From positions 18,910,001 to 18,974,000 of the forward strand of contig NC_090353.1 of NCBI RefSeq assembly GCF_035084215.1: a stretch of 64,000 nucleotides of DNA. The letters run 5' to 3'. The number at the start of each line of letters is the position of its first letter. Position 1 is the first letter of the stretch. The DNA is from Heptranchias perlo. Taxonomy: Eukaryota. The notes below the pieces were generated by a model that was not told the origin of the DNA, searched no databases, and saw only the letters and a list, made by a program, of their open reading frames with translations. Below are positions 7,251 through 56,318 of the stretch, piece by piece. Both the position numbers and the translations under genes were made by a program.

Positions 7251-8505
7251 TCTAAGTCATTAGTTTAGATTGTAAATATCTGAGACCCAAGCACTGATCC
7301 TTGCGGCACCCCACAAGTTACAGGCTGCCGACCTGAAAATGACCCATTTATCCCTACTCTCTGTTTTCTGTCCATTAACCAATATTGTCTTTCCAAGCTA
7401 AGATGTTACCCCCAACCCCATGAGTCCTTATCTTGCGTAACAACCTTTTATGTGGCAGTTTATCGAATTCCTTTTGAAAATCCAAATATACTACATCCAC
7501 TGGTTCCCCTTTATCTACCCTGCTAGTTACATCCTCAAAAAACTCTAATAAATTTGTCAAACATGATTTCCCTTTTGTAAAACCATGTTGACTCTGCCTA
7601 ATCATATTATGATTTTCTAAGTGCTCTGTTACCACTTCCTTAATAATGGATTCCAACATTTTCCCGATGACTGATGTCAGGCTAACTGGCCTAAAGTTCC
7701 ATGTTTTCTCTCTCCCTCCTTTCTTAAATAGCGGTATTCCATTTGCTACCTTCCAAACCGCTGGGACCGTTCTAGAATCTGGGGAATTTTGGAAGATCAT
7801 AACCAATGCATCCACTATCTCTGCAGACACCGCCTTTAGAACCCTCAGATGTAGGCCATCAGATCCAAGGGATTTATTAGCTTTTAGTCCCATTAATTTC
7901 TCCAGTACTTTTTCTCTACTGATATTAATTACTTTAAGTTCCTCACTCTCATTAGCCCCTTGGATCCCCACTATTTCTGGTATGCTTTTTGTCTCTTCTA
8001 CTGTGAAGACAGATACAAAATATTTGTTTAACGCATCTGCCATTTCCTGATTCCCCATTATAATTTCTCCTGTCTCAGCCTCTAAGTGACCAACATTTAC
8101 TTTTGCTACTCAATCAAGTCTGTTTTTGAGTTTTCAGCTTTTAAGGGTTGTATCAGCTTTTTTGAAACTTTTGGTCAGCAATTGCTAGTTTTCCTGCTTT
8201 TGCTGTGAATCAGATGCCATATATTATAATGCAGCCACAGACCAAGATAATTCTCAGACAAAGCCACCCCCACAGACATAACTGGTTGATGCTACTTTTT
8301 TAAAAATTAAGTTTGGCTTCACTCCTATTTTCTAAAATGAAATAAGAACAACTTGCATTTATGAAGCACCTTAACATAGAAAAAACTTCCCAGGACGCTT
8401 CACAGAGACATAAGGAAAAATTGAAACATGAGCTGAAGGAGTTATTAGGAGGTGTGATAAACAAGCTTGGTTGAAGAGGTGGGTTTAAGGATGATCTTAA
8501 AGGAG

Positions 8506-8754
8506 TGAGAATCCCTACGTGGTCAGTTTTTAGTAAAATATTAAGATGCCGACGTGGCAAAGAAGCAGAATGCAAAATGGTTAGAAAGGGTTAATTAGTT
8601 AGTAACTGAGATTGGGACAGATGGCCTGGCCCTCCTGCTGGGCCATATGTTTGCTTAGTCAGCAGGCCTGCATTGTCTTATCAATGATAGGTCTTTGATG
8701 TGAGTCAAGGACTGGTCTGAATGTCTCCATGTTTATGGCAGATCAATATAGGTA
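8506..8754 (+). repeat. 5' LTR, truncated (first 249 bp only)
   Basis: 245/249 identical to 11440-11688, then diverges abruptly after TATAGGTA. Confidence 0.92.
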
Positions 8755-10017
8755 TGTTTTGGGTATAGGGATTATCCCTTTGGATAAATAAATAATAAAT
8801 GAAGATTTGACAAATTAATCACTTGGGCTCTCAAGAAGAGCCGCAATGGATTTTCTGTGTTTCTTTTAAAACAGGTGACCCTGGGTTTTTTTTGGGACCA
8901 CGTGAGTGTTGATGGTGCAGGATTACCAAGAGTAGTTACAAAGTTACGGTGCAACCTTTGCTGGAGAAATTTGGTGCAGGAAACGATCCAGTGGTGTTAA
9001 AGATTTAAGACTTTAGCTGCAGACATCAGCGGATACCAAATGTCACAGCGTGGTGATATCAACCTGATTCTCTTCTTTTGAAAACATTTTGATTTGTTTT
9101 GTTTTAGCCTATTTGTTGTCTTCCGAGACAGAATGCTCGAGGTGGGGAGATATGGGAATTTCTCTAAAGTCATTGAATTGGGCATGATAAAAAAAATCAA
9201 TCCGGCATAAATATACAATCTAGTGGAAGTCAGGAAAGTGTAGTTGAGAATAGCAAATTGATAGCTTTCTCGTGGAGATATTTGTGTCCTTGCCTATAAT
9301 GAATAATGAGAAAACTACACTCAATAGCCTGGCCACTACCCTGACATCGGGACCATGCAGGGGGAGATAAGCACTCTCGACACCCCTGATCTTTTTGATA
9401 AGATAACCTGAAAACCTAAGAATGGCTACAGTGGACATAAAAGATACAAATGTATGTTGCCATCATCTGAAATGGAGACCAGGATGAAGAACATGATTAC
9501 AAAGGCCTGTGGCCTGGTGAGCTATTGCAACCACTCTTTAAACAAACCAGTTGCTTTTACAGGACTGAATCCTACAGGTCATATGATGTGTGCCATGGAA
9601 AATGTTCGGAAATACCATAAGGAAGAAGAGACTGGCCAGCAGAAAGTTAATATCCAAGAACACTAAGCTCATTCCTATGAGATGCTGCTAGTATGCGGAG
9701 ATACATGAAGAAGATACAGTGAAGAATGAGTCTCAGACAGGCTCAGTTACTTGACAACAGCACAACAGGAAAATGGTTAATGTGGTCCAGGCGAGTGAGA
9801 AATCCTTTTAAACAAGGCACTGACACATGGTCCATAGAGAAACCAACTAATTAATGAAACAGTCAGGAAACACTGGTATCAATCAAAAGGACTGAAATTA
9901 AAGTAAAGAGGGACACAGTAATTTGGATTTCCAAAATTCAGGGTTAGGTTCCCATCAGTTAACAATAAAATTGGGAGAAACAATATTTAGAAGATATCCG
10001 CACGATGGATACAAAAT

Positions 10018-10116
10018 TACAAGATTATGAGGGGCCCAGATAAAGTAGACTGGAAGTACCTGTTTCCCCTAGCAGAGGGTTCAAGAACTAGAGGACGTAG
10101 ATTTAAGCTGATTGGC
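10018..10116 (+). mobile_element. Internal CR1 fragment embedded in the ERV
   Basis: YKIMRGPDKVD...LFPLAEGSRTRGRRFKL, CR1 ORF2 C-terminal segment without tail; ACAAAATTA on both flanks. Confidence 0.8.
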
Positions 10117-10117
10117 T

Positions 10118-10870
10118 GGAACAAAATTAAAGGGATGTGTTACTAGACATGCTGTCACTGTATGTCCACATAGTGTTGGACACAGCCTAGAAGCACAGTG
10201 TGGGTTTAATAATACCGGTACCAATCAGGATATTAACTGTACCATGGAGGCCCTAGAGGCGGATCTAAAACCCACTTAAGTGGTATATGCCGGAGAGGGC
10301 GAATACTGTGTTACAACTAATTTGAAAACGTTTAAATATGCCAATCTAACTTGTGATATTTTAAGTCCAGAATTCTACTCCATTTCTGAAGTCCTGGTTC
10401 GGATTGGACCCGAGGAACTGGTAGAGATACACCGGCATAACCTCACCACCTTACAAGTTTCTGAGAATGCCAGAAAGGACTTCAAAGAATATCAGGACAC
10501 ATTTGGGTATCTGACACCCCTGTTGCCTAAATACTTGGAAGCATTGCGAATGGAGATACGCCTCTCCTAGAAGGGTTATTATAACCTACAACAGGACAAT
10601 AACAACATTAAGCATGACATTGACCAAATTAAAGTCACCACCTGGTGAAATTACCTCTGGAATTTGGGACTGAATATACAGATCCATCTTTGGATTAGAT
10701 TAGTTTCATATGTATTAGTCGTAGTGCAGTTTGTTGTAATGTGCTTCTTGATTTTCATTGCATGTAATAAATGTAAGCAGAGGATGAAGGTTTTGGCAAA
10801 GATAGTAAAACAGAGCCTGGGTGAGAATGTTCCCATTGTCTCTGTGGTTTCAACTAAGAACACATCTTAA
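10118..10870 (+). pseudogene. env: env pseudogene, C-terminal (TM subunit) half
   Basis: One frame with 3 nonsense codons (10277, 10568, 10646): Cys-rich ectodomain with N-glycosylation sequons (NNT, NCT, NLT), amphipathic helix, W-rich membrane-proximal segment, TM LVSYVLVVVQFVVMCFLIFIAC, basic tail. Confidence 0.8.
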
Positions 10871-11227
10871 TGGTACTGGGAGTAGCACCCGCTGGGGTAA
10901 GGTGCATGTAAAAGGGAAGACAATTATAGTTCGATAGGATTATCAGATGCTCTGCCTCTCTTCCACCCGGACTGGTGGCCAACACGAAGGGAACCTGGTT
11001 AAGATGAGGTACAGCATCTAACGGGATATTGTAGGGAGAATTTGGATTAAGGGATATAATGGGGAGGGTACCAATTCACAGGTGTAAAATGGTCTGAAAG
11101 GTACCATTCAGTCTAGTTAGGCTGGAAACAAAATATAAAGCACCATGGGATATTTGACTATGTTAGCCTTTTCAAACTAACATGAATAGGTTTAGCTGAC
11201 CAAGGACATTCGCAACTTACTTGAGAG

Positions 11228-11467
11228 ATGTTTAGAAGGAGTCTGTTCCTGAGAACAGATAAGATACAAAGGCGTATTGATGAAACATGTCTGTGTTCTA
11301 TTGGGACTTCTCTAGTTCAAGGGCTAGTCATATTCATTGTTATAATTCTTATAGTTTATTGCTTACTTAAATGTTGCTGCGCTGCAGAACCAGTGAGCAC
11401 CGTAATAATTGGTTATCATAAAATGATAAAAGGGGGGAATGAGAATCCCTACGTGGTCAGTTTTTAG
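11228..11467 (+). pseudogene. Putative accessory membrane-protein ORF remnant between env and 3' LTR
   Basis: LVQGLVIFIVIILIVYCLLKCCC hydrophobic segment plus Cys cluster; ORF reads through the PPT into U3. Confidence 0.4.
11428..11439 (+). promoter_or_regulatory. Polypurine tract
   Basis: AAAAGGGGGGAA immediately before the TG of the 3' LTR. Confidence 0.9.
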
Positions 11468-12111
11468 TAAAATATTAAGATGCCGACGTGGCAAAGAAGC
11501 AGAATGCAAAATGGTTAGAAAGGGTTAATTAGTTAGTAACTGAGATTGATACAAGTGGCCTGGCCCTCCTGCTGGGCCATATGTTTGCTTAGTCAGCAGG
11601 CCTGCATTGTCTTATCAATGATAGGTCTTTGATGTGAGTCAAGGACTGGTCTGAATGTCTCCATGTTTATGGCAGATCAATATAGGTAACGAGCTTAGCC
11701 AAAGTTGAAAGACATTCCGGGTTGGGAGATGAGGAACAGAAGGGACAGGGAAGAACATTCCAAGTTGGAAGATGAGGAAGTTATCCCCTTTGATGTCTAA
11801 CAGCAGCATGATCAGCACATGGACGATTTATGATTGGCCGGAAATAATGTAACCTCGCATGGCAACCTGTGCCCCGCTTATGATTGGTGTTGACCCTCGT
11901 TAAGTATGTTCCAACCCTATTCATCTGTATAAAAACGTGTGGATTTCTGTATGTTTTTGTTCTTGCTCTGCCAGCATAGAGGGACTCTATCAGGAGTCCA
12001 AATCAATGCTGCAGACTAAGAACCCTGCTATTAAAGATGTGTTGAACTTTAAAATGTATTCGACTTCAGTTATTACTGAACCAGACTGAGGGGAAAGAAT
12101 CCGGATCGTCA
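11440..12111 (+). repeat. Complete 3' LTR (672 bp)
   Basis: TG...CA; ~25-bp internal direct repeat (ACATTCC..GTTGG.AGATGAGGAA x2), two TGATTGG (inverted CCAAT), TATAAAA 11928, ATTAAA 12030. Confidence 0.9.
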
Positions 12112-14485
12112 GGAGCAAAGGGAGGGGGAGAGGCAGAGGGGTTTGGAGAGACAATTCCAGAGTGCGGGGCCTAGGCGGCTGAAGGTATGGCCACCAATTG
12201 TGGGGCGAAGGTAGCTGAGGATGCACAGTTCGAGGCGGGGGGGTGGTGTTGGTGTAGTTGTGGGGCTTTGAGCAGGTTACAGAGATAGGGAGTGGCAAGG
12301 CCATGAAGGGATTTAAACAAAAGGATGAGAATTTTAAATCTGATGCGTTGGAGAAATAGGAGCCAAAGTAGGTCAGTGAGGAATTGGTGTAGAATGAGGT
12401 ACGGAGAGCAGAGTTTTGGATAAGCTGAAGTAAATGGAGGGTGGAGAATGGGAGAACAGCTACGAAAGCATCGGAATAGTGAAGCCCCGGAGTGACAAAG
12501 GAGGGTTCTGGCAACAGATGGGCAGAGGTGGGCGATGTTATGGAAGTAGAAGTAGATGGTATTTATGATGGAGATGATATGGGGTCAGAAACTCAGCTCA
12601 GGGTCCAATAGAATTCTGAGGTTGTGAACACTCTGGTTCCGCCTGAGACAGTGGATGGAATCGATGGCAAGGGTACGGAGTTTGTGGTCAAAGATAATGG
12701 CTTTGGTCTTACCAATATTTACCTGGAGGAAATTGTAGTTCATGCAAGACCAGATGTTGATCAAACAGTCTGACATCACAGAAACAATGGAGGGTTGAGA
12801 CAGGTGGTGGAGAGGTAGAGCTTTTTATGTCTCAGTGTGTAGATGAGGAAGAGGTCAAGGATAGATTCTTGAGGGACTGGAGGATGGGAAAAGAAGCCAT
12901 TCCTGTATTTAATCTGACAACAATCGACGGTCGTCCCATTGAGCTGGATGACGGAGGAGAGCCACTGGAGGAGGATGGTTTGCTTGATCGAGTCAAAGGC
13001 TGGAGGGAGAATGAGGAGGGATACCATGGTCATAGTCACAGAGCTTGTCATTTGTGACTTTGGTTAGGGCCGTTTCAATGCTGTGGCAGGGGCGAAAATC
13101 TAATAGGAGAGATTCAAACATGGAGTTGCAAGGAAGGAGTGCATGGATTTGGGAGGCGACAATGCATTTAAGGACTTTGGAGAGGAAAGGGAAATTGGTG
13201 ATGAGATGGTAGTTTGCCAGGATAGAGGGTTAAGGATGTTTTTTGAGGAGGGGATGATGATGGCAGTTTTGAAAGGGAGGGGTACAGTACCTGAGGAGAG
13301 GAAACTATTTACAATGTCAACTAGTATGGGGGCCAGGAAGGGAAGTTGAATGGTCAGCACTTTAGTGGGAATCAGGTCAAGGAAGGAGGAAGTGGGTCTC
13401 ATGGATGAGATGACGTTGGAGCGGGCATGAGAGGAGATGGGAGAGAAACTAGAAAGAGACGAGGACTCAGGGCTAGGGTAGAGGTAGGCCTGGGGGGAGG
13501 TTTGGCTTGAATAGGAAAAGGGATGGGGGGAAGCAGCAGATGCAGCTGAATGGCAAAGATGTCCATGGGCTCATCGTACTTGTTGTTGGAGGTGAGGGTG
13601 GAGGGGCCAGAAGATAGATGTTTAGGGAGACGGTTGATAGTGGTGCAAAAAAGCCAGGAGTAATCTTTGCTCTCCAATGATGATTCTGGAGTAGTGGATG
13701 GTTTTGGCAAAGAAATGTGAGGCCTGATAGTGCTTGATGTGGTCCAGCCAGATGTGGTCATGGATGGCTAAACCAGTTGTTACCCAGATACATTTAATTC
13801 TGTGTTCCCTGGACTTGAAGTAGCAAAGATGGGGTCATACTAGGGGGAACAACCAGGATAGAAGAGAGTAAAAGTTTTTCTGGAGACAAGGGCATAAAGG
13901 TGGAGATGAGTGAGTGGTTGGTCAAATTATCATGGCAAATGGAATGCCAAAAGGTAGGCAGTTGGGAATTTGAAAGTGCAGTTGTAAATCTACTGTAAAG
14001 AGGGAGGAGATCTCGGTGAGAAACTCAGGGTGGACAAGAAGATATTAAAGGAGAGGTGACGGGTGGAACAGAGTAAGGTGATCAAAGGAGGAGATGATGT
14101 CTTTAGGAGTAGGAGGAGAGACCAAGGTGTGAATTGGTGACAAGGACCACATCATCGTAATGATTTGGGTGGGGCAGGTGGTAGAAAGTATGGAGAAATA
14201 AGAGGCAAGGTGTCACCACCCATGAACCAAGTTTGGTCAAAGCCAGAATGTCAATGCAGTCATTCACAACATGTTCATGGATGACAAGAGCTTTGTTCAC
14301 GTGTGAATGGACATTCTGGAGGGTAATGTGCAGAGGGTCAGTGATTGATCCGTTGGCAGAGTCCAAGGGAATAGTGGTGGATGGGGTGAGCTGATGGGAA
14401 GGATGTTGCCAAAGTAGAAATCTCCGTTTGTGTCACAGGATATATTTTTACAACCAGCATGGTTATCCCTAAGTATTAATTTTAT

Positions 14486-14800
14486 TGATGTGGAGATGCC
14501 GGTGATGGACTGGGGTGGACAAATGTAAGCTGTTGGACTATAACCTATTGTAAACAATTTTACAACACCAAGTTATAGTCCAGCAATTTTATTTTAAATT
14601 CACAAGCTTTCGGAGATTTTCTCCTTCCTCAGGCAAATGTTTGCCTGAGGAAGGAGAAAATCTCCGAAAGCTTGTGAATTTAAAATAAAATTGCTGGACT
14701 ATAACTTGGTGTTGTAAAATTGTTTACAATTGTCAACCCCAGTCCATCACCGGCATCTCCACATCAGGACTATAACCTGGTGTTGTAAGACTCCTTACAT
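14486..14800. mobile_element. Nested palindromic Penelope-like insertions (family A)
   Basis: Inner insert 14547-14766 with perfect 91-bp arms (14547-14637 / 14640-14730) and TSD GGACTATAACCT; outer related copy with TSD ~TTAATTTTAT; same family at 43291-43525. Confidence 0.75.
14640..14678 (+). ncRNA. Minimal hammerhead ribozyme motif (mirror copy on - strand at 14599-14637)
   Basis: UUUGC-CUGAGGA-A-GGAGA(AAA)UCUCC-GAAA-GC-UU-GUGAA. Confidence 0.65.
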
Positions 14801-14884
14801 TAATTTTATTGTTATTCATGTAATTCTGTATAACACCCCAAGTCCAAAGACAGAACTGGGAGTGATACCAACTTTTAAGTATCA

Positions 14885-15362
14885 ATGACGCGAGAGACCC
14901 GAGGCGGCGCTGTTTCGGCGTCCCTCGTGCTGCAATGACGCTCGGCGCCCTGAGGCGGCGCTGGTTCCGGCGGTCCCTCGTTGAAGTTGCAATGACGCTC
15001 GGCGCCCTGAGGCGGCGCTGGTTCCGGCGGTCCCTCGTTGAAGCTGCAGTGACGGTCGGCGCCCTGAGGCGGCGCTGGTTCCGGCGGTCCCTCGTTGAAG
15101 CTGCAGTGACGGTCGGCGCCCTGAGGCGGCGCTGGTTCCGGCGGTCCCTCGTTGAAGTTGCAATGACGCTCGGCGCCCTGGGGCGGCGCTGGTTCCGGCG
15201 GTCCCTCGTTGAAGCTGCAGTGACGGTCGGCGCCCTGAGGCGGCGCTGGTTCCGGCGGTCCCTCGTTGAAGCTGCAGTGACGGTCGGCGCCCTGAGGCGG
15301 CGCTGGTTCCGGCGGTCCCTCGTTGAAGCTGCAGTGACGGTCGGCGCCCTGAGGCGGCGCTG
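14885..15362. repeat. 57-bp GC-rich minisatellite (7 full units, one partial, one degenerate)
   Basis: Unit starts at 14935, 14992, 15049, 15106, 15163, 15220, 15277, 15334; unit RTGACGSTCGGCGCCCTGAGGCGGCGCTGGTTCCGGCGGTCCCTCGTTGAAGYTGCA. Confidence 0.97.
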
Positions 15363-15488
15363 CCGACGTCTTCTGGGCTATTCCCAGAGGCATCTGCAGT
15401 TTGGCGCGGTTAGAGCTGGTGTGCGAGAGCCAGGCTTTCCGTCCGTTGCTTCTTACACCAAGCGGTTGCCGCGGCCATCCCCAGAGTC

Positions 15489-31779
<16,291 letters not shown>

Positions 31780-42400: not shown

Positions 42401-45400
42401 TCCGGGGTCAGGGCAAACTTGCATAATTTGAACAATTCCAATGGGCACCAAGTTGGGCGCATCTTGAGTGTCCAATTCAGGAGGAAGGGGGCAATTAGCA
42501 AAAAGTGGCATTTTGAAGCTAATTCTTCAGCAGACCTGGTTTCACAGGCCACTGATGAATGTTAATTGGCTCCTTTCTACCAGAGCCAATTAAAATGTAA
42601 CTTCTTCCAGGCCATAACCCAGCCTAAAGACTCCTGAGGGACACACTTCCATGGATGTGCGTATTGGTTTACTTGCTGATGTCCAGATCACTTTGTGCAA
42701 AGTGGAGGGGGTGGGAGGGGGGCGTCACAGGAAATCCCACTCGAAGCTATCCCGCTAGCCTCACCTCCTTGTTACATAACGGGCCTGCATGGGGCAGACA
42801 GAACTTCCATCCACCTCATGCCCCAGCGGAAGTCGTCCTCAGGCGGAGACCTGACGTTTCCAGGTCCCACCAGATTTTCCTCCACCTCTTCCACTGCACT
42901 CCCGCTGTATTATGTCAGGAGTGCATCCCGGGTCCGGAGGACTTGTGACCTTATGTGAGTTGGTGGTCCAGCTTAAAAGATTTAGGTGCAACATTAGAAG
43001 CATATGTAACCGTCAGCAGCATGGTTTGCGCTGCTATGAATAAGAGTGATGATAAAACCGCAGAGGCAAAATATATCACTGAATCAGAGAAATGCATTAT
43101 ATGAAAAAATACCAGATATAAAAATAGTAAGGAAATAAAGAACAAAAAGAAAAGATTGAAGTTGGAGATAAGAAAAATAATCAAGAAAAAAAGGAAATAA
43201 ATAATAAAAACAAAAATAAGGTGAGCAAAAGAAAATTTAACAAATTAAGAAAAGCAGATGAGAGGAAAAAGGTCACAGTATTGCTGATTATGATGTGGAG
43301 ATGCCGGTGATGGACTGGGGTTGACAATTGTAAACAATTTTACAACACCAAGTTATAGTCCAACAATTTTATTTTAAATTCACAAGCTTTCGGAGGCTAC
43401 CTCCTTCCTCAGGTGAACGATGTGGAAATTCCCATCGTTCACCTGAGGAAGGAGGTAGCCTCCGAAAGCTTGTGAATTTAAAATAAAATTGCTGGACTAT
43501 AACTTGGTGTTGTAAAATTGTTTACTATTGCTGATTAGTAATTGAGATATGCTAAGGACGAACAGTTAGGCATGGATCGATGGTAGGAGAGAAGTGGAAA
43601 TTCTCAATCTTCACAATTACCCAATGGTGGATGTTAACCCTTTATATGCTAGTTCTAGAAATATTATAAGCTAAGAAATCCAACACAGGCAAAAATCCAT
43701 TTTACCACAACCCTGAAAACATTTCTCAATCCTTATTCACAGTGCGCTACTAAAGTACTGAGGTTAGTATGTAAATGTTCCATGAATGGCTAAGGAGACG
43801 CGCGGTCTCATTTCTACAACTTACGCGATTATCAGCATCACAATTTATTTTCTTCCTTGACTTTTACCACCATTTTTTTCCTTTCTAATCCTTTCCTGAA
43901 ACGCTCGAATTTGTCTCAAGGGCCTAGGCAGTAAGTATCAATGGATTGTTTGAGAAACAAAAATCAGGGCAATGTTGACATGCATACGATTGCTAGCAAG
44001 GGGATAGTGAGATCAATTGCAGAACCCCCACCAGACCCCATCTGCGATCAACTACTCCAACCCAGACCAAAGACTGAACTTGGGGCATTTCTAGTTTGTG
44101 TGACTTAGTACCGTGTCATGTGATGAATTTACTTATTGAGTCATAAGAGTTTAAAAACAAATATATTCTGAAAATTATATTTAGGAAAATGCGATGCCTA
44201 ATAGCTACAGTCCTTATTTAATTTGAATTATGTATATTTTCTCAATCTATCCTCATAATAGGAATTTTCTCTGCATACTACCACATGACCCTGAGTTACT
44301 TTGGTCAGATATTAGATGAACTATCCATCCTGTGGGTGTTGGCGATTGGTTATATGCTGTGGTTTCCCAGGAGACACTTCCCAACATTCATCAAAGGCCG
44401 GTAATGAATAAATAGCTTTGTGTTTTTTTTAAATTTAAATTTCTTATTCAACACTCAAACGTACAAACCCAATAAGTAATAGTTGAGACAGAAAGCACAA
44501 GTCGGAAGTTCCAGCACATACTGCCCACAATGTTTTGACCAATATTTCAAATGGCTACACAATCTTGTGCAACACACCTCTCAACTTCCGACATGCATTC
44601 TCATTTGGTAAGGCTTCCCACCGGAAGTACAAAATCAGAAAATTACCCCTATAATCTTAAATTCTGTAAATGTAGCAATCAAATCATGAACAATGTAGTA
44701 ATCAAGTCATGATATAGCATAAAACATATATACGGTAATGCGATGCACAGCAATGACCCAACAATAAATGGGATGGGATGTTATTGGGGCAGAGCAACAG
44801 GGCTTCAGCAGGCACTCAATACAAGACCCCCATCATCAACATCCTGGGGATCACCACTGACAAGAGGATTAACTGGATCTGTCATATCAGCAGGCAGAGG
44901 CTGGGTAATGGCTACAATTGGTTTACCTCATGACCCCTCAAAGGCTCACCACCATCAGCAAGGTTTAAATCAGAGGTGTGTGATGGGATACTCACCACTT
45001 GCCTGGATGGGTCCAGCTGCAAAAGCACTCAGGAAGCTCAATACCATCCAGTACGGAGCAGTTTGCTTCATCGGCGCCCCCTCCATTAGATGTAATATCT
45101 ACCCTCTCGATCACCGGTGCACTGCACTATCTACAGGATGCACTGCAGCAACTCACAGTACCTCCACATTCAATGCAGTGGTGACCTCCACAATAACAGG
45201 AAGAGCTGTCCTTGTGTTAAGAGTTGTCTGCAGGTTGGCCTAGAGAAGATGGCTTAGCTTGGTGACAGATTCCCATATGAAGCAGAGGTCGCAAAGACAT
45301 TTCTCCTCTGAGATGCCCAAATATGCTTGTGTTGATCTGTAATTGAGGTAAGCGCAGTAGTGTAAGTAATCACTGAAGCATGATTACCTCATGATGTCAT

Positions 45401-51400: not shown

Positions 51401-54400
51401 TTAGGAGCAATACAAATTGCAAAGAATAACTTTTATTTGATATTTATACTTACATAGGAAAACTTACAGTAATTTGATAAGCAGAAAAATAGAACTTGAG
51501 GCAGAGGAGACAGTACAGGCTGAGCAAAATGGAGGCACACAGCACCACCACTGGTGGTGGGAGGCCTGTCATTAGACTGTGATAGGCAACTGTGGACATG
51601 GGAACTTGCCATTATGAATGTTTAACATTTTCACATTGCATATGTTGACATAAAAAGATTAGTCAGAAATCTTCATAACAGAAAGTAAGGTTCTGGGGCA
51701 GGGAACGCAAGTCAATCTCCCATTGCATTGTTTACAGAGAATGAAGACCAAGTGTAGTCTTGAAGGGGAAACATTTGCAGGGCTATGGGGAAAGAGCAGG
51801 AGAGTGGGACTAATTGGATAGCTCTTCCAAAGAGCCGGCACAGGCACGATGGGCCAAATGGCTACATCATTCTATGATTCAGGTGAAGCAGGGTTAGAGC
51901 CAGGGTATAATTGGACTAAGGTGTCCAGATGTAATTCAGTCCCCATTTTAAAGTCATATATTCTGTTCTTATTTTCATAAAACACTTTGATTCAATAATA
52001 ATTAGTTAAAAAGCAAGACTTATGGCCACTCAGGAAGCAGAGAATTAGAGTTGATTGGAGTGTAGCAGTTCCTCTGCAGTCCAGCCTGAGGGGCTGGCAA
52101 ATGCCAAACAGGTGTTACAGCACTACTATTGGCAGGAGGGTGTAATTACAGCATACATATACATAGCCAATTCCCATTATAAATGTGGAAATGGGAATTT
52201 ATAATGCAAGTGCATGCAGATGTAAGATTTTTAATATATTCTAGATAGATAACCAAGTGAATATAGCATACATATGTACAGTATAAATTATATTGTTTAG
52301 TTTTATACTAAATTACCATTCTTTTGAATTAAGATTTTATATACACAGTGATTCTTTTCTTTATATTCTCACCACTATGGGAGTTAAACTGTTCTGATCT
52401 GACTCTATAAGGTTCTAAGTGTGCATTCTCCCTAATTTGAACAATTTAATTTACTTAAATGCTCCTGAAAAGAGTTGTTTGGGCTACCTGGGTTTAAATA
52501 ACTGAGAGTGCAATTCAAAAAGGAGCTGTCAATCATACACATACTGGAATCAAACACACAGTATTGTTTATGTTTGAATGGTGTGGCTTGTATCCTCTCT
52601 CAAGCCTGTAATCTTGGAGAAAAATGACCAAACCTTGCAATGCTTCTAACAACTTAGGCTGGGGACATGAACCAAAACTGCAGTTGGCTTTTGAACTCTT
52701 TATGTGTTGTAACTGAATACATTTGACACCTTGTGGATCTTAAAGTAATAGGTTTGATTGACAGCTACATCTGAGTTGAAGACTTGAATCAGATTTTCAG
52801 TCAGAGGAACTTGACCTTGATTCGTTGTAACCCATTTGATGGACTGCTCCATAGCCAGGAGCTACTGATTGTTGCTTTATATTTGGCAACCTGCTCACTA
52901 ATCACATAGACTCCATCAGGAGAGACTAAGAAAGGTTGGTAATCAGAGGGATTTGGGTGTCCTTGTACGCGAATCACAGAAAGTAAACATGCAGGTACAG
53001 CAAGCAATCAGGAAGGCAATTGTAAGTTAGCGTTTATTGCAAGGGGGTTGGAGCATAAGAGTAAGGAGGTCTTGCTGCAATCATATAGGGCTCGGGTGAG
53101 ACCATACCTGGAGTATAGTGTACAGTTTTGAGCTCCTTACCTAAGGAAGGATATGCTTGCCTTGGAGGGGGTGCAATGAAGGTTCACTAGATTGATTCCT
53201 GGGATGAGAGGGTTGTCCTATGAGGAGAGATTGAGTAGAATGGGCTTACATTCTCTGGAGTTTAAAATAATGAGAGGTGATCTCATTGAAATGTACAAAA
53301 TTCTTCGAGGGCTTGACAGGATAAATGCTGAGAGAGTGTTTACCCCGGCTGGAGAGTCCAGAACTAGGGGTCTTAAGATAAGGGGTCGGCCATTTAGGAC
53401 TGAGATGAGGAGAAATTTCTTCACTCAGAGGGTTGTGAATCTTTGGAATTCTCTACCCCAGAGAGCTGTGGATGCTCAGTCGTTGAGTATTTTCAAGACT
53501 GAGATCGATAGATATTTGGACACTAAGGGAATCAAGGGATATGGGGATAGGGTGGGAAATCAGCCATGATCTGATTGAATGGTGGAGCAGGCTCGAGGGG
53601 CCGTATGGCCTTCTCCAGCTCCTATTTCTTATGTTGTTATGTTAGGGGTACAAGACTACTCAAAGGCTCAGTGATAGCAAGTGGCCATGTAAGAAGTATC
53701 TGACCATGTTTCAAGAGTGAATTTTATGAAAGAAGCCAGAATTCAGCCAATTTGATTCACTCCACGTGATATCAAGAAACGGTTGAGTGCATTAGATACA
53801 ACAAAGGCTATGGGCCCCGACAACATCCCGGCTGTAGTGCTGAAGAACTAGCCGCGCCTCTAGCAAAACTGTTCCAGTACAGCTACAACACTGGTATCTA
53901 CCGGACAATGTGGAAAATTGCCCAGGTTTGTCCTGTCCACAAAAAGCAGGACAAATCCAATCCGACCAATTACCGCCATATCAGTCTACTCTCAATCATC
54001 AGCAAAATGATGGATTGTGTCATTGACAGTGCTATCAAGCGGCACTTACTCACCAGTAGCCTGCTCACCGATGCTCAGTTTGGGTTCCGCCAGGTCCACT
54101 CAGCTCCAGACCTCTTTACAGCCTTGGTCCAAACATGGACAAAAGAGCTGAATTCCAGAGGTGAGGTGAGAGTGACTGCCCTTGACATCAAGGCAGCATT
54201 TGACCGAGTGTGGCACCAAGGAGCCCTGGTAAAATTGACGTCAATGGGAAAGAGGGGGAAAACTCTCCAATGGCTGGTGTCATACCTAGCACAAAGAAAG
54301 ATGGTAGTGGTTGTTGGGGGCCAATCATCTCAGCCCCAGGACATTGTTGCAGGAGTTCCTCAGGGCAGTGTCCTAGGCCCAACCATCTTCAGCTGCTTCA

Positions 54401-56318
54401 TCAATGACCTTCCCTCCATCATAAGGTCAGAAATGGGGATGTTTGCTGATGATTGCACAGTGTTCAGTTCCATTCCCAACCCCTCAGATAATGAAGCAGT
54501 CCGAGCCCACATGCAGCAAGACCTGGACAACATACAGGCTTGGGCTGATAAGTGGCAAGTAACATTCACACCAGACAAGTGCCAGGCAATGACCATCTCC
54601 AACAAGAGAGAGTCTAACCACCTCCCCTTGATATGCAACGGCATTACCATTGCCAAATCCCCCACCGTCAACATCCTGGGGGTAACCATTGACCAAAAAC
54701 TTAACTGGACCAGCCACATAAATACTGTGGCTACAAGAGCAGGTGAGAGGCTGGGTATTCTGCGGCGAGTAACTCAACTCGTGACTCCTCAAGGCCTTTC
54801 CACCATCTACAAAGCACAAGTCAGGAGTGTGATGGAATACTATCCACTTGCCTGGATGAGTGCAGCTCCAACAACACTCAAGAAGCTCGACACCATCCAG
54901 GACAAAGCAGCCCACTTGATTGGCACCCCATCCACCACCCTAACATTCACTCCCTTCACTACCGGCGCACCGTGGCTGCAGTGTGTACCATCCACAGGAG
55001 CACTGCAGCAACTCCAAGGCTTCTTCGACAGCACCTCCCAAACCCGCAACCTCTACCACCTAGAAGGACAAGGGCAGCAGGCACATGGGAAGAACACCAC
55101 CTGCACGTTCCCCTCCAAGTCACACACCATCCCGACTTGGAAATATATCGCCTTTCCTTCATCGTTGCTGGGTCAAAATCCTGGAACTCCCTACCTAACA
55201 GCAGTGTGGGAGAATCTTCACCACACGGACTGCAGCGGTTCAAGAAGGCGGCTCACCACCACCTTCTCAAGGGCAATTAGGGATGGGCAATAAATGTTGG
55301 CCTTGCCAGCGATGCCCACATCCCATGAAAGAATTTTTAAAAATGTTGCGTGTTAGTGCAGGAGAAGTGTCTTTGACATTTCGAGGAGAAAAGTAAAGTT
55401 TATAATCACTGACCTTCTACTGTTCTTTTACCTGTTTAATATTTGATGAATTTGTCTAGCAGTTTATGGTGTGAGCCATAATCTAATACAGTGTATATTC
55501 CTCTCTCTCTGAAGTGTAGGAGGACATGTAGCGACAAGTTGCAGTAAGCCAGACTGCAATGATAAGGGTTTTCTGTTTGACCCCTAGCACTCAATGTTTA
55601 CTAGATATTGGACAGGAAAGGCATACTCTGGTTCAAAAGGGATGCCAGATCTTCTTACAGGAATGACCGGTGACGCTGAACCCAAGTAAAAACCTAAAAA
55701 TGTAACACCTCAGCAAAAACTCAGTCGATCAGCATCTCACTCAATTGCAGCTCACAGTAATTTCCCATCTTATGTAACTAGTGGTTGTTGTTCCAGTTTA
55801 AACAAATATGAAACTGATTTTATTAATTTGTAGTTGTACTCGACAGCATTAGTACATTGCTGCCCTTCTATAGGGATATTTGGCTTTGTGTAAACCACAC
55901 CTCCAGGCCAGGTTGATCTCATCAACCAATGCTGAGACATTCCTTTTGTCCTACGTCTTCTTCCAGACAATTTACAGATGACATAGTCATGCACTCTGTA
56001 ATCTACTTATCTACTTTCATGGCTAGGTATTGAGTTTGGTGTTTGGTTTTATTGTGTGAAGGAGACTAAAATACAACAATAAATAAATGAAATCCTATGT
56101 GTCTACACAACTTATCTCATTGTTCTGGATTTTTTTGCAGGCATGTGCTGATTAACATCGCTGTTGTCCATGGCACAACACTGTTTGCATATTTTGATGC
56201 ACTTTATGAAATTCGAGAGACCAACCCAGAAGTGAAATATTGGCCCATAAATTCGCGATGTCTGGGACTACCATACCTTGCTATAGAAACCAAGGATCGT
56301 CTGCGAAAGTCTTGCTGA
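36345..56318 (+). CDS. ACER1: Alkaline ceramidase 1, 6 coding exons, 266 aa
   Basis: join(36345..36437,41018..41132,44262..44400,48229..48366,50212..50349,56141..56318) = 801 nt open frame; DWCE.N, AEFYNT, CREST motifs SAYYH, LDE, HSFWH; ACER1-like FAYQSS, HPYAQKR, NAYALNS.ALHILY. Confidence 0.95.
36511..36581 (+). repeat. Short tandem duplication
   Basis: TTTTAAACT..ATCACAGACTAGAATT twice, 43 nt apart. Confidence 0.7.
37665..39070 (-). mobile_element. L2 3' end split by a CR1 insertion
   Basis: Tail at 37665-37727 resumes at ~38893; homologous to the L2 that hosts the ERV. Confidence 0.7.
37728..38893 (+). mobile_element. CR1 LINE RT region to 3' tail
   Basis: [35 protein letters not shown], tail. 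Confidence 0.92.
39085..39830 (-). mobile_element. Cluster of CR1 3' tails (39085-39265, 39525-39830)
   Basis: GGCCATT.AGCCCCTC / GATTCGGCCCATCG tails; reverse [12 protein letters not shown]. Confidence 0.75.
41018..41132 (+). CDS. ACER1: ACER1 coding exon 2
   Basis: Acceptor TTTACAG; [24 protein letters not shown]...; donor GTGAGT. Confidence 0.95.
41560..41915 (-). mobile_element. Old CR1 RT fragment
   Basis: RKQRVAIN...[16 protein letters not shown], a degenerate [10 protein letters not shown]. Confidence 0.7.
43291..43525. mobile_element. Palindromic Penelope-like insertion (family A) in ACER1 intron 2
   Basis: Long inverted arms around ~43423-43433; 12-bp TSD TATTGCTGATTA (43279-43290, 43526-43537). 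Confidence 0.8.
43438..43476 (+). ncRNA. Minimal hammerhead ribozyme motif (mirror copy on - strand)
   Basis: UUCAC-CUGAGGA-A-GGAGG(UAG)CCUCC-GAAA-GC-UU-GUGAA; Watson-Crick stems I and II. Confidence 0.72.
44262..44400 (+). CDS. ACER1: ACER1 coding exon 3
   Basis: [25 protein letters not shown]...; acceptor ATAG, donor GTAATG. Confidence 0.95.
44800..45200 (+). mobile_element. Degraded fragment of the 53735-type LINE family
   Basis: [12 protein letters not shown]...LRKLNTIQ matches [13 protein letters not shown]...LKKLDTIQ. Confidence 0.75.
48229..48366 (+). CDS. ACER1: ACER1 coding exon 4
   Basis: [38 protein letters not shown]...; polypyrimidine-CAG acceptor, donor GTAAGA. Confidence 0.95.
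48685..49050 (-). mobile_element. Deu-domain SINE
   Basis: Reverse complement of the 17816 element (AGTGCCATGGGATCTTTTACACCCACCTGA; CCACTGAGCC A-box end). Confidence 0.8.
50212..50349 (+). CDS. ACER1: ACER1 coding exon 5
   Basis: ...[24 protein letters not shown]; acceptor TTTTTCAG, donor GTAAAA; not in the ORF list. Confidence 0.95.
51030..51365 (+). repeat. Degenerate ~60-bp tandem motif
   Basis: Recurrent GGGGCTGAAGACAATTAAAT...AATAATT..CAGGGG. Confidence 0.55.
52935..53645 (+). mobile_element. CR1 LINE 3' part
   Basis: ORF 53192-53569; highly similar to the 5383-5970 copy. Confidence 0.92.
53735..55340 (+). mobile_element. 5'-truncated CR1-clade LINE (distinct family) with nearly intact RT
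   Basis: 461-aa ORF: [40 protein letters not shown]; frameshift near 54945; tail GGGATGGGCAATAAATG. Confidence 0.92.
56141..56318 (+). CDS. ACER1: ACER1 coding exon 6
   Basis: Acceptor TTTTTTTGCAG; HVLINI...KYWP...GLPY...C*. Confidence 0.95.

Follow-up and report, generated by a model that had tools for sequence, protein, structure and literature searches.

Results

A deleted provirus at 8506–12111

The window, by which we mean the whole 64-kb stretch of Heptranchias perlo DNA that was analysed, contains a deleted provirus at 8506–12111 on the forward strand, with a truncated 5′ LTR, a full 3′ LTR and a GGAG duplication. Its features, in window coordinates, are as follows:

8502–8505 (+): 5′ target-site duplication GGAG; the same 4 bases stand at 12112–12115
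8506–8754 (+): 5′ LTR, 249 of 672 bp kept; 4 differences to the 3′ LTR in 249 bp
8755–10017 (+): internal stretch of the repeat family, repetitive in the manner of the env part; no remnant of gag, pol or env recognisable in it
10018–10120 (+): 3′ fragment of a CR1-LINE ORF2, adjoining the env remnant; repeat family D6
10118–10870 (+): env, C-terminal ~250 codons; stops at 10277, 10568 and 10646
10136–10354 (+): six-cysteine cluster, gaps 8, 11, 12, 22 and 14; predicted, likely F-type domain I/II region
10520–10700 (+): Pro-rich turn, likely heptad helix (HRB/HR2) and Trp-rich membrane-proximal stretch, from heptad register and WDSV Env alignment
10709–10765 (+): transmembrane (TM) anchor, then a short Cys/basic tail, from hydropathy
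10928–11431 (+): candidate second membrane-protein frame, 6 stops in 168 codons, TM-like at 11312–11368; low confidence
11428–11439 (+): polypurine tract (PPT) AAAAGGGGGG plus 2-nt AA spacer, read from the sequence
11440–12111 (+): complete 3′ LTR, 672 bp, TG..CA; TATAAA at 11928, ATTAAA at 12030
12112–12115 (+): 3′ target-site duplication GGAG, matching 8502–8505

The 672-bp length given for the LTR in the original prediction is that of the 3′ copy. All four differences between the two LTRs lie inside 7 bp and may represent one event; counting all four (d/2u), at the rate of 2.2e-10 assumed in PMC4422223, yields an age of ~36 Myr with a very wide range. The fragment at 10018–10120 is 72% identical over 103 nt to a LINE copy at 19298–19738, with which it has a peptide motif in common, and comparison with repeat contigs revealed loose ends at 10018 and 10116 on either side of it. 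Because this CR1-LINE piece adjoins the start of env, only the last ~250 env codons are present. One contig of organism B spans the same place; the fragment may predate the spread of the family, or organism B may hold the orthologous locus. With three stops and the 5′ part of env lost, the copy cannot make protein, and it is dead, with no intact env.

No gag, pol or primer-binding site was recognisable in the copy at 8506–12111, and profile and chain tests of the internal stretch at 8755–10017 remained at shuffle level. A shredded pol in 8755–10017, the pieces of which are colinear by eye, was considered and rejected (score 30.7 against 26.3 ± 3.8 for shuffles, maximum 37.5; a second test was again at the null). 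Two strong splice-acceptor-like pyrimidine tracts are found in this interval, near 8860–8876 and 9085–9109. A tRNA search of 8000–12500 found none. Positions 10976–11000, between env and the 3′ frame, resemble a tRNA-Arg primer-binding site, probably by chance. The frame at 10928–11431 (+), between env and the PPT, has a TM-like stretch and then a CCC motif at its end; it could be an accessory membrane-protein gene. A family search with it gave no match, and a gamma-type TM reading of it was rejected, the scores being merely TM-driven. A 3′ accessory ORF is described in SnRV (PMC12193657).

Elsewhere in the window are two near-perfect long palindromes of one family (14547–14730 and 43325–43530; arms of 91–98 nt, MITE-like), a tandem array with a 57-bp unit (14874–15419) adjoining a GC-rich island (15001–16000), and a 507-codon open frame (53770–55293, +) over repeat families D12 and D20 that is likely a LINE reverse transcriptase.

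A much-repeated family with few protein relatives

The stretch, whole or in part, is present in 12 runs from 5 organisms and 6 studies, and no RNA dataset was listed among them. The whole internal region is heavily repeated. Summed word depth, which is not copy number, was 95,000–252,000 over 8764–11442 outside the LINE bin in run X1 (21,515 contigs), in which a unique flank contig had a depth of 48; in X1 and X10, which are runs of two species, repetition of the 8755–10017 interval resembles that of the env part. Organism C provided an 877-nt contig over 10161–11037 with 25 differences, and organism B provided pieces at 98–99%, one of them spanning the LINE piece.

The only protein relatives found by word-index searches were four Heptranchias perlo gene models. 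The env peptide is 57% identical to P0003 and 53% to P0002 over 84–87% of its length, and homology to the relatives begins at 10112. In the gene models P0002, P0004 and P0155 an env piece is spliced into zinc-finger, ENDOD1-like and emp24-domain genes, which are probably annotation artefacts and possibly cases of exonisation. P0004 also joins the env piece to a gamma-type exon with an immunosuppressive domain (ISD), so gene models can evidently mix elements. No env relative was found in viral, metagenome or prokaryote contigs, and a related env was present in 0 of 31 metagenome integrase loci. When a profile that included the zinc-finger tail of P0002 was searched against 1.84 billion representatives, the best 150 matches were all to that tail.

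The env frame is real and is not gamma-type

Read through with X at its stops, 10118–10870 gives the peptide originally quoted, followed by a hydrophobic TM at residues 198–216 (hydropathy). That the frame is real is shown by the number of its internal stops, 3 in 250 codons where base composition predicts 16.6 (P ~6e-5), by its identity to P0003 and P0002, and by the features that it encodes: six ectodomain cysteines, all conserved, then a stretch with heptad periodicity, a segment rich in Trp and a TM. The gamma-type signature consists of an ISD plus CX6CC between HR1 and HR2 of the TM subunit (PMC9967133). Both LQNRxxLD and CX6CC are absent from P0001, P0003 and the env part of P0002; in 3 of 3 shark sequences the 190 aa that precede the TM contain neither ISD nor CX6CC. 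CX6CC is present in the gamma and delta reference Envs. The earlier statements that neither motif occurs here and that the env is not gamma-type are therefore upheld. Pfam and PDB-sequence searches with the env piece and its alignments returned nothing relevant, including no match to PF00523 in a scan that covered the C-terminal env fragment only. In an F-like Env a furin site, a fusion peptide and HRA would be expected ~200 aa upstream of the cysteine cluster; the DNA upstream of the env remnant scored at shuffle level.

Cysteine spacing points to a probable F-like Env

The natural references for comparison were 17 foamy Env, 38 paramyxovirus/pneumovirus F, 45 baculovirus F and 42 rhabdovirus-set G candidates, along with 6 gamma, 7 delta and 1 WDSV Env; from the initial 40 F frames and 47 baculovirus loci, two each were left out (length or no frame). 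Pfam was checked for 38 of the 42 G candidates (31 rhabdovirus G, 1 PF24664, 6 neither), and 35 entered the G profile. Chain scores for env were TM-driven and are excluded from the argument.

A five-cysteine pattern, C-x7/8-C-x8/14-C-x7/19-C-x22/34-C, whose ranges were set after the query had been seen, occurs in all three shark sequences, 186–191 aa before the TM, where the domain I/II cluster of class Ib fusogens is expected at 160–220 aa. It likewise occurs in 38/38 paramyxovirus/pneumovirus F (161–169 aa before the TM), 17/17 foamy Env (194–201 aa) and 33/45 baculovirus F, and in none of 56 other proteins (the 42 G candidates and the gamma, delta and WDSV Envs). In shuffled shark ectodomains it arises with P 0.0003–0.0016. 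The gaps of P0003 are 8, 11, 10 and 22, and those of L055, a metapneumovirus-like F, are 8, 14, 10 and 22. More broadly, paramyxovirus/pneumovirus and baculovirus F have the same first gap of 8, then 14 vs 11, 7–10 vs 10–12 and 22–23 vs 22, the shark figure standing second; the shark cluster differs in belonging to an LTR element and in its greater distance from the TM. Matches to L024 and L095 were rejected as chance motif matches.

On a joint F, foamy and baculovirus profile, the segments of which were cut with the same post hoc pattern, the shark sequences scored 5.9–8.2 bits in register, and 2 of 500 shuffles scored as high; single rhabdovirus-set windows reached up to 7.3 bits. With leave-one-family-out profiles they scored 3.1–6.6 bits, compared with a median of 1.9–2.4 for the held-out true family. 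On the rhabdovirus G profile they were at the null (152/300). Profile-profile comparison by hhalign was non-significant against foamy Env, F, baculovirus F, rhabdovirus G and gamma Env alike, and its positive controls failed too (foamy vs F, E 0.2; F vs baculovirus F, E 0.098); hhalign has no power here because known F-type homologies were also missed.

The original prediction had drawn a parallel with the spacing of the foamy TM subunit. Four cysteines align in register; the profile-profile comparison was not significant, though by a test that misses known homologies. The likeness to foamy Env (class Ib) extends to the distance to the TM and to the Pro-rich turn before the HRB helix (PMC11468914), and both Envs are without ISD and CX6CC. 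As for the F-like type itself, it is likely from cysteine geometry, but no fusion-protein match came from the structure check, for which the models were too poor. We consider it quite probable that this env is F-like.

Possible kinship to walleye dermal sarcoma virus (WDSV) Env

P0003 aligned with WDSV Env (locus L048) at z 7.5 (0 of 1000 shuffles), colinear over ~135 columns of the membrane-proximal ectodomain, and this was its best of 149 natural targets; its mean z was 3.9 for the 17 foamy Envs, 0.7 for F and 0.2 for G. The pairwise z was 3.0 for P0002 and -0.4 for the window's own env protein, and a three-sequence profile gave z 4.3 (0 of 300 shuffles). With the beta region alone WDSV Env still ranked first among families (z 2.2, 12/400), and 8 of 833 decoy windows scored as high. 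An apparent kinship to delta Env (z 5.6 with the three-sequence profile) was traced to a 15-residue Trp stretch and rejected.

Identity in the WDSV Env alignment is 22%/19%. The first cysteine of C-x8-C and two further cysteines are invariant, and W-x-x-L-x-x-W before the TM is common to shark and WDSV Env. The RKKR site of WDSV Env lies ~205 aa before the first cysteine, a distance that is 193–223 in F-type families. On the joint F, foamy and baculovirus profile WDSV Env itself was not significant (50/500).

Like the shark env, WDSV Env is non-gamma and has a C-x8-C pair ~180 aa before the TM, with three further cysteines colinear with P0003, and the integrase of a shark relative is epsilon-like, as in WDSV. 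The two differ in that WDSV Env is without the second cysteine pair of the shark env and has a tail of >300 aa vs ~35 aa in the shark copy; no counterpart of the WDSV cyclin-like orf-A/B was found in the shark copy, and WDSV is a teleost exogenous virus while the element here is a shark ERV. The env kinship is weakly significant, and it seems somewhat more probable than otherwise that the shark env is kin to WDSV Env.

PPT junction and linked integrase indicate a probable epsilon-like lineage

The PPT-LTR junction reads AAAAGGGGGG-AA-TGAG. It is MLV-like and not foamy-like, as had been noted at the outset: GGGGGG-AA-TG stands here vs AGAGGG-TG in the 10 foamy junctions listed, none of which has a 2-nt spacer. 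The PPT-AA-TG arrangement matches L032, L040 and L043 (gamma), and also the 2-nt spacer of L006, which we take to be a Xenopus ERV and whose env is gamma-type by Pfam.

The copy at 8506–12111 has no pol, and the link to an integrase comes from one predicted gene model, P0155, in which the same env piece (75%) occurs together with an integrase core. Its integrase is 46–49% identical to walleye epsilonretrovirus integrases vs 29–36% to foamy; L025 and L038 are, we presume, WEHV. In a first tree, in which the query has a long branch, it groups with epsilonretroviruses at 96/93. When 11 metagenome integrases were added it stayed with the epsilon viruses (83/86), beside a metagenome element (95/84), inside gamma plus epsilon (84/87) and apart from metagenome elements with the RT motif YIDD, which were taken for ERV-L-like. 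The tree covers 111 columns and does not knowingly include SnRV or lokiretrovirus references.

Two metagenome contigs, L279 and L290, have intact gag and pol frames, and of all integrases theirs comes nearest to that of the shark (51%); no env was found in either. A further metagenome LTR-type element (L263:7228–8424) has a 1797-aa frame and a second, env-like frame with an RTRR site and a hydrophobic stretch, for which there was no Pfam match.

Junction and integrase both point to class I, epsilon-like viruses, and the foamy/lokiretrovirus label of the original prediction is not supported. Nor is its suggestion of a possibly chimeric lineage needed, since a coherent epsilon-like virus would account for the MLV-like PPT as well as the non-gamma env.

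The alternative that fares best keeps the F-like env but places it on a backbone that is not epsilon, whether SnRV-related (clade Huo, class III) or other, or supposes an env swap; the likeness to WDSV would then be one that F-type proteins have in general. The elephant shark is known to have SnRV-like ERVs (PMC4422223), the integrase link is indirect and could reflect a gene model that mixes elements, and two of the three sequences give a weak WDSV signal. However, the PPT junction belongs to the 8506–12111 copy itself and has the class I form, the linked integrase is placed within gamma plus epsilon and apart from the YIDD elements, and WDSV Env is the best natural target of P0003. We regard this alternative as unlikely, if one to be taken seriously.

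Structure models and a class III signal

The two AlphaFold models (pLDDT 36.8 and 32.6) were both too poor to use. The Foldseek search returned no fusion-protein match and nothing at E ≤ 0.001, which from such models is uninformative either way, and VIA placed them closest to generic beta-sandwiches (best Z 4.7), with no F protein listed. The TM anchor is the sole confident part of the relative's model, in which the likely HRB helix is also seen at low confidence. In a language-model feature search (Atlas) the top rank went to glycoproteins of Monjiviricetes (class III; 0.93 with 177 shared features), and with class III skipped no F-type family was among the matches listed.

This signal would be explained if the env were a class III fusogen, like the G of chuviruses, xinmoviruses or rhabdoviruses, captured by a shark LTR element. 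The top Atlas matches are PF24664 clusters (0.92–0.93, 173–186 shared features), and 8 of the 10 best Atlas family matches share a family or clan. Yet PF24664 is carried by 18% and 28% of the members of the top two clusters, and shuffled proteins reach an Atlas score of 0.9 in 4–10 of 100 cases. The env has no Pfam match to PF24664 or rhabdovirus G and is at the null on the rhabdovirus G profile, and L175, the only PF24664 protein compared, is without the cysteine pattern (z 0.1–0.3). Capture of a class III fusogen is in our judgement improbable.

Discussion

We propose, at roughly even odds of the whole being correct, that the copy is a dead provirus with an internal deletion, that the much-repeated ERV family to which it belongs is likely epsilon-like (class I, clade Mu), and that its env is not gamma-type, is likely related to WDSV Env and, with cysteine spacing as the sole basis, is predicted to be F-like (class Ib). 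Two other readings of the env fare worse than those considered above. It could be a retroviral membrane protein of another, unrecognised fold in which the cysteine match is due to chance. No library, PDB-sequence or fold match was obtained, and the pattern ranges are post hoc; still, the pattern, its position and the flanking helix-Trp-TM layout agree together, and such a coincidence is very unlikely. Least probable of all is a true foamy-like or lokiretrovirus element, a reading which draws on the mean z of 3.9 between P0003 and the 17 foamy Envs and on the four cysteines in register with the foamy TM at a foamy-like distance from the membrane, but which is opposed by foamy PPT junctions without the 2-nt spacer, an integrase outside the foamy clade, a profile-profile score against foamy Env no higher than the shuffle mean (17.0 vs 16.9) and a lokiretrovirus paper that names no cartilaginous host in its abstract and in whose main text the word "shark" is absent (PMC7947760).

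If the env of this likely epsilon-like family is indeed F-like, its ancestral form would have been a furin-cleaved trimer. The piece that survives would then run from the domain I/II base with its disulfide bonds through the HRB helix and the membrane-proximal stretch to the anchor. Once the trimer was triggered, HRB would pack against the coiled coil of HRA, which is lost in this copy, and a six-helix bundle would form as in foamy Env and paramyxovirus F, according to the class Ib mechanism described in PMC11468914. For integration the virus would have used an integrase of class I, which removes two bases at the end of U3.

F-like Envs have been published for foamy viruses (PMC11468914) and lokiretroviruses (PMC7947760), and errantiviruses carry an F-type env (10.1101/2023.10.26.564294). 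Foamy Env had no significant profile match to the shark env, and neither the PPT junction nor the linked integrase here is foamy. Lokiretroviruses are marked by an RT that is sister to those of all retroviruses. Lokiretrovirus Env, which we compared by description, is an F-like env in a vertebrate LTR retroelement, as is proposed here; Loki Env detectably matches PF00523 (PMC7947760), to which the C-terminal fragment of the shark env gave no match, and the integrase linked to the shark env lies inside the class I retroviruses. Shark ERVs related to epsilonretroviruses and to SnRV have been reported (PMC4422223, PMC6001957, PMC10699275), among them CmiERV lineages II/III of the elephant shark, epsilon-related ERVs of a cartilaginous fish that were also compared by description (PMC4422223). 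The Env of WDSV and WEHV has been described as distinct, non-gamma and recent (PMC9967133), and a Viro3D table gives no class-I hit for WDSV against RSV F (PMC12583693). In our literature search no paper was found that assigns the Env of epsilon-like or shark ERVs to the F-like fusogens, although such a placement may be in print; the portions available of PMC12440569, PMC13709493, PMC11237817 and 10.1101/2024.03.17.585361 contain nothing on the shark env described here.

It is tempting to go further and to suggest that WDSV-type Env of walleye epsilonretroviruses and the shark Env form one F-like (class Ib) fusogen family within Orthoretrovirinae. Foamy, loki and epsilon viruses would then all have an F-like Env, which could be the fusogen that retroviruses had ancestrally and that gamma-type Env replaced. 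We offer this as a tentative idea that may well prove wrong, and one that exceeds what the specimen can prove, the 8506–12111 copy being a poor one, without pol and without the 5′ part of env. A single F-like family would contradict the view of WDSV-type Env as a recent development. If the idea is true, WDSV Env, so far an orphan, would be assigned to a family and given a fold, and the abundant ERVs of sharks would make it possible to test which fusogen retroviruses had first, a matter on which four scenarios have been set out (PMC7947760).
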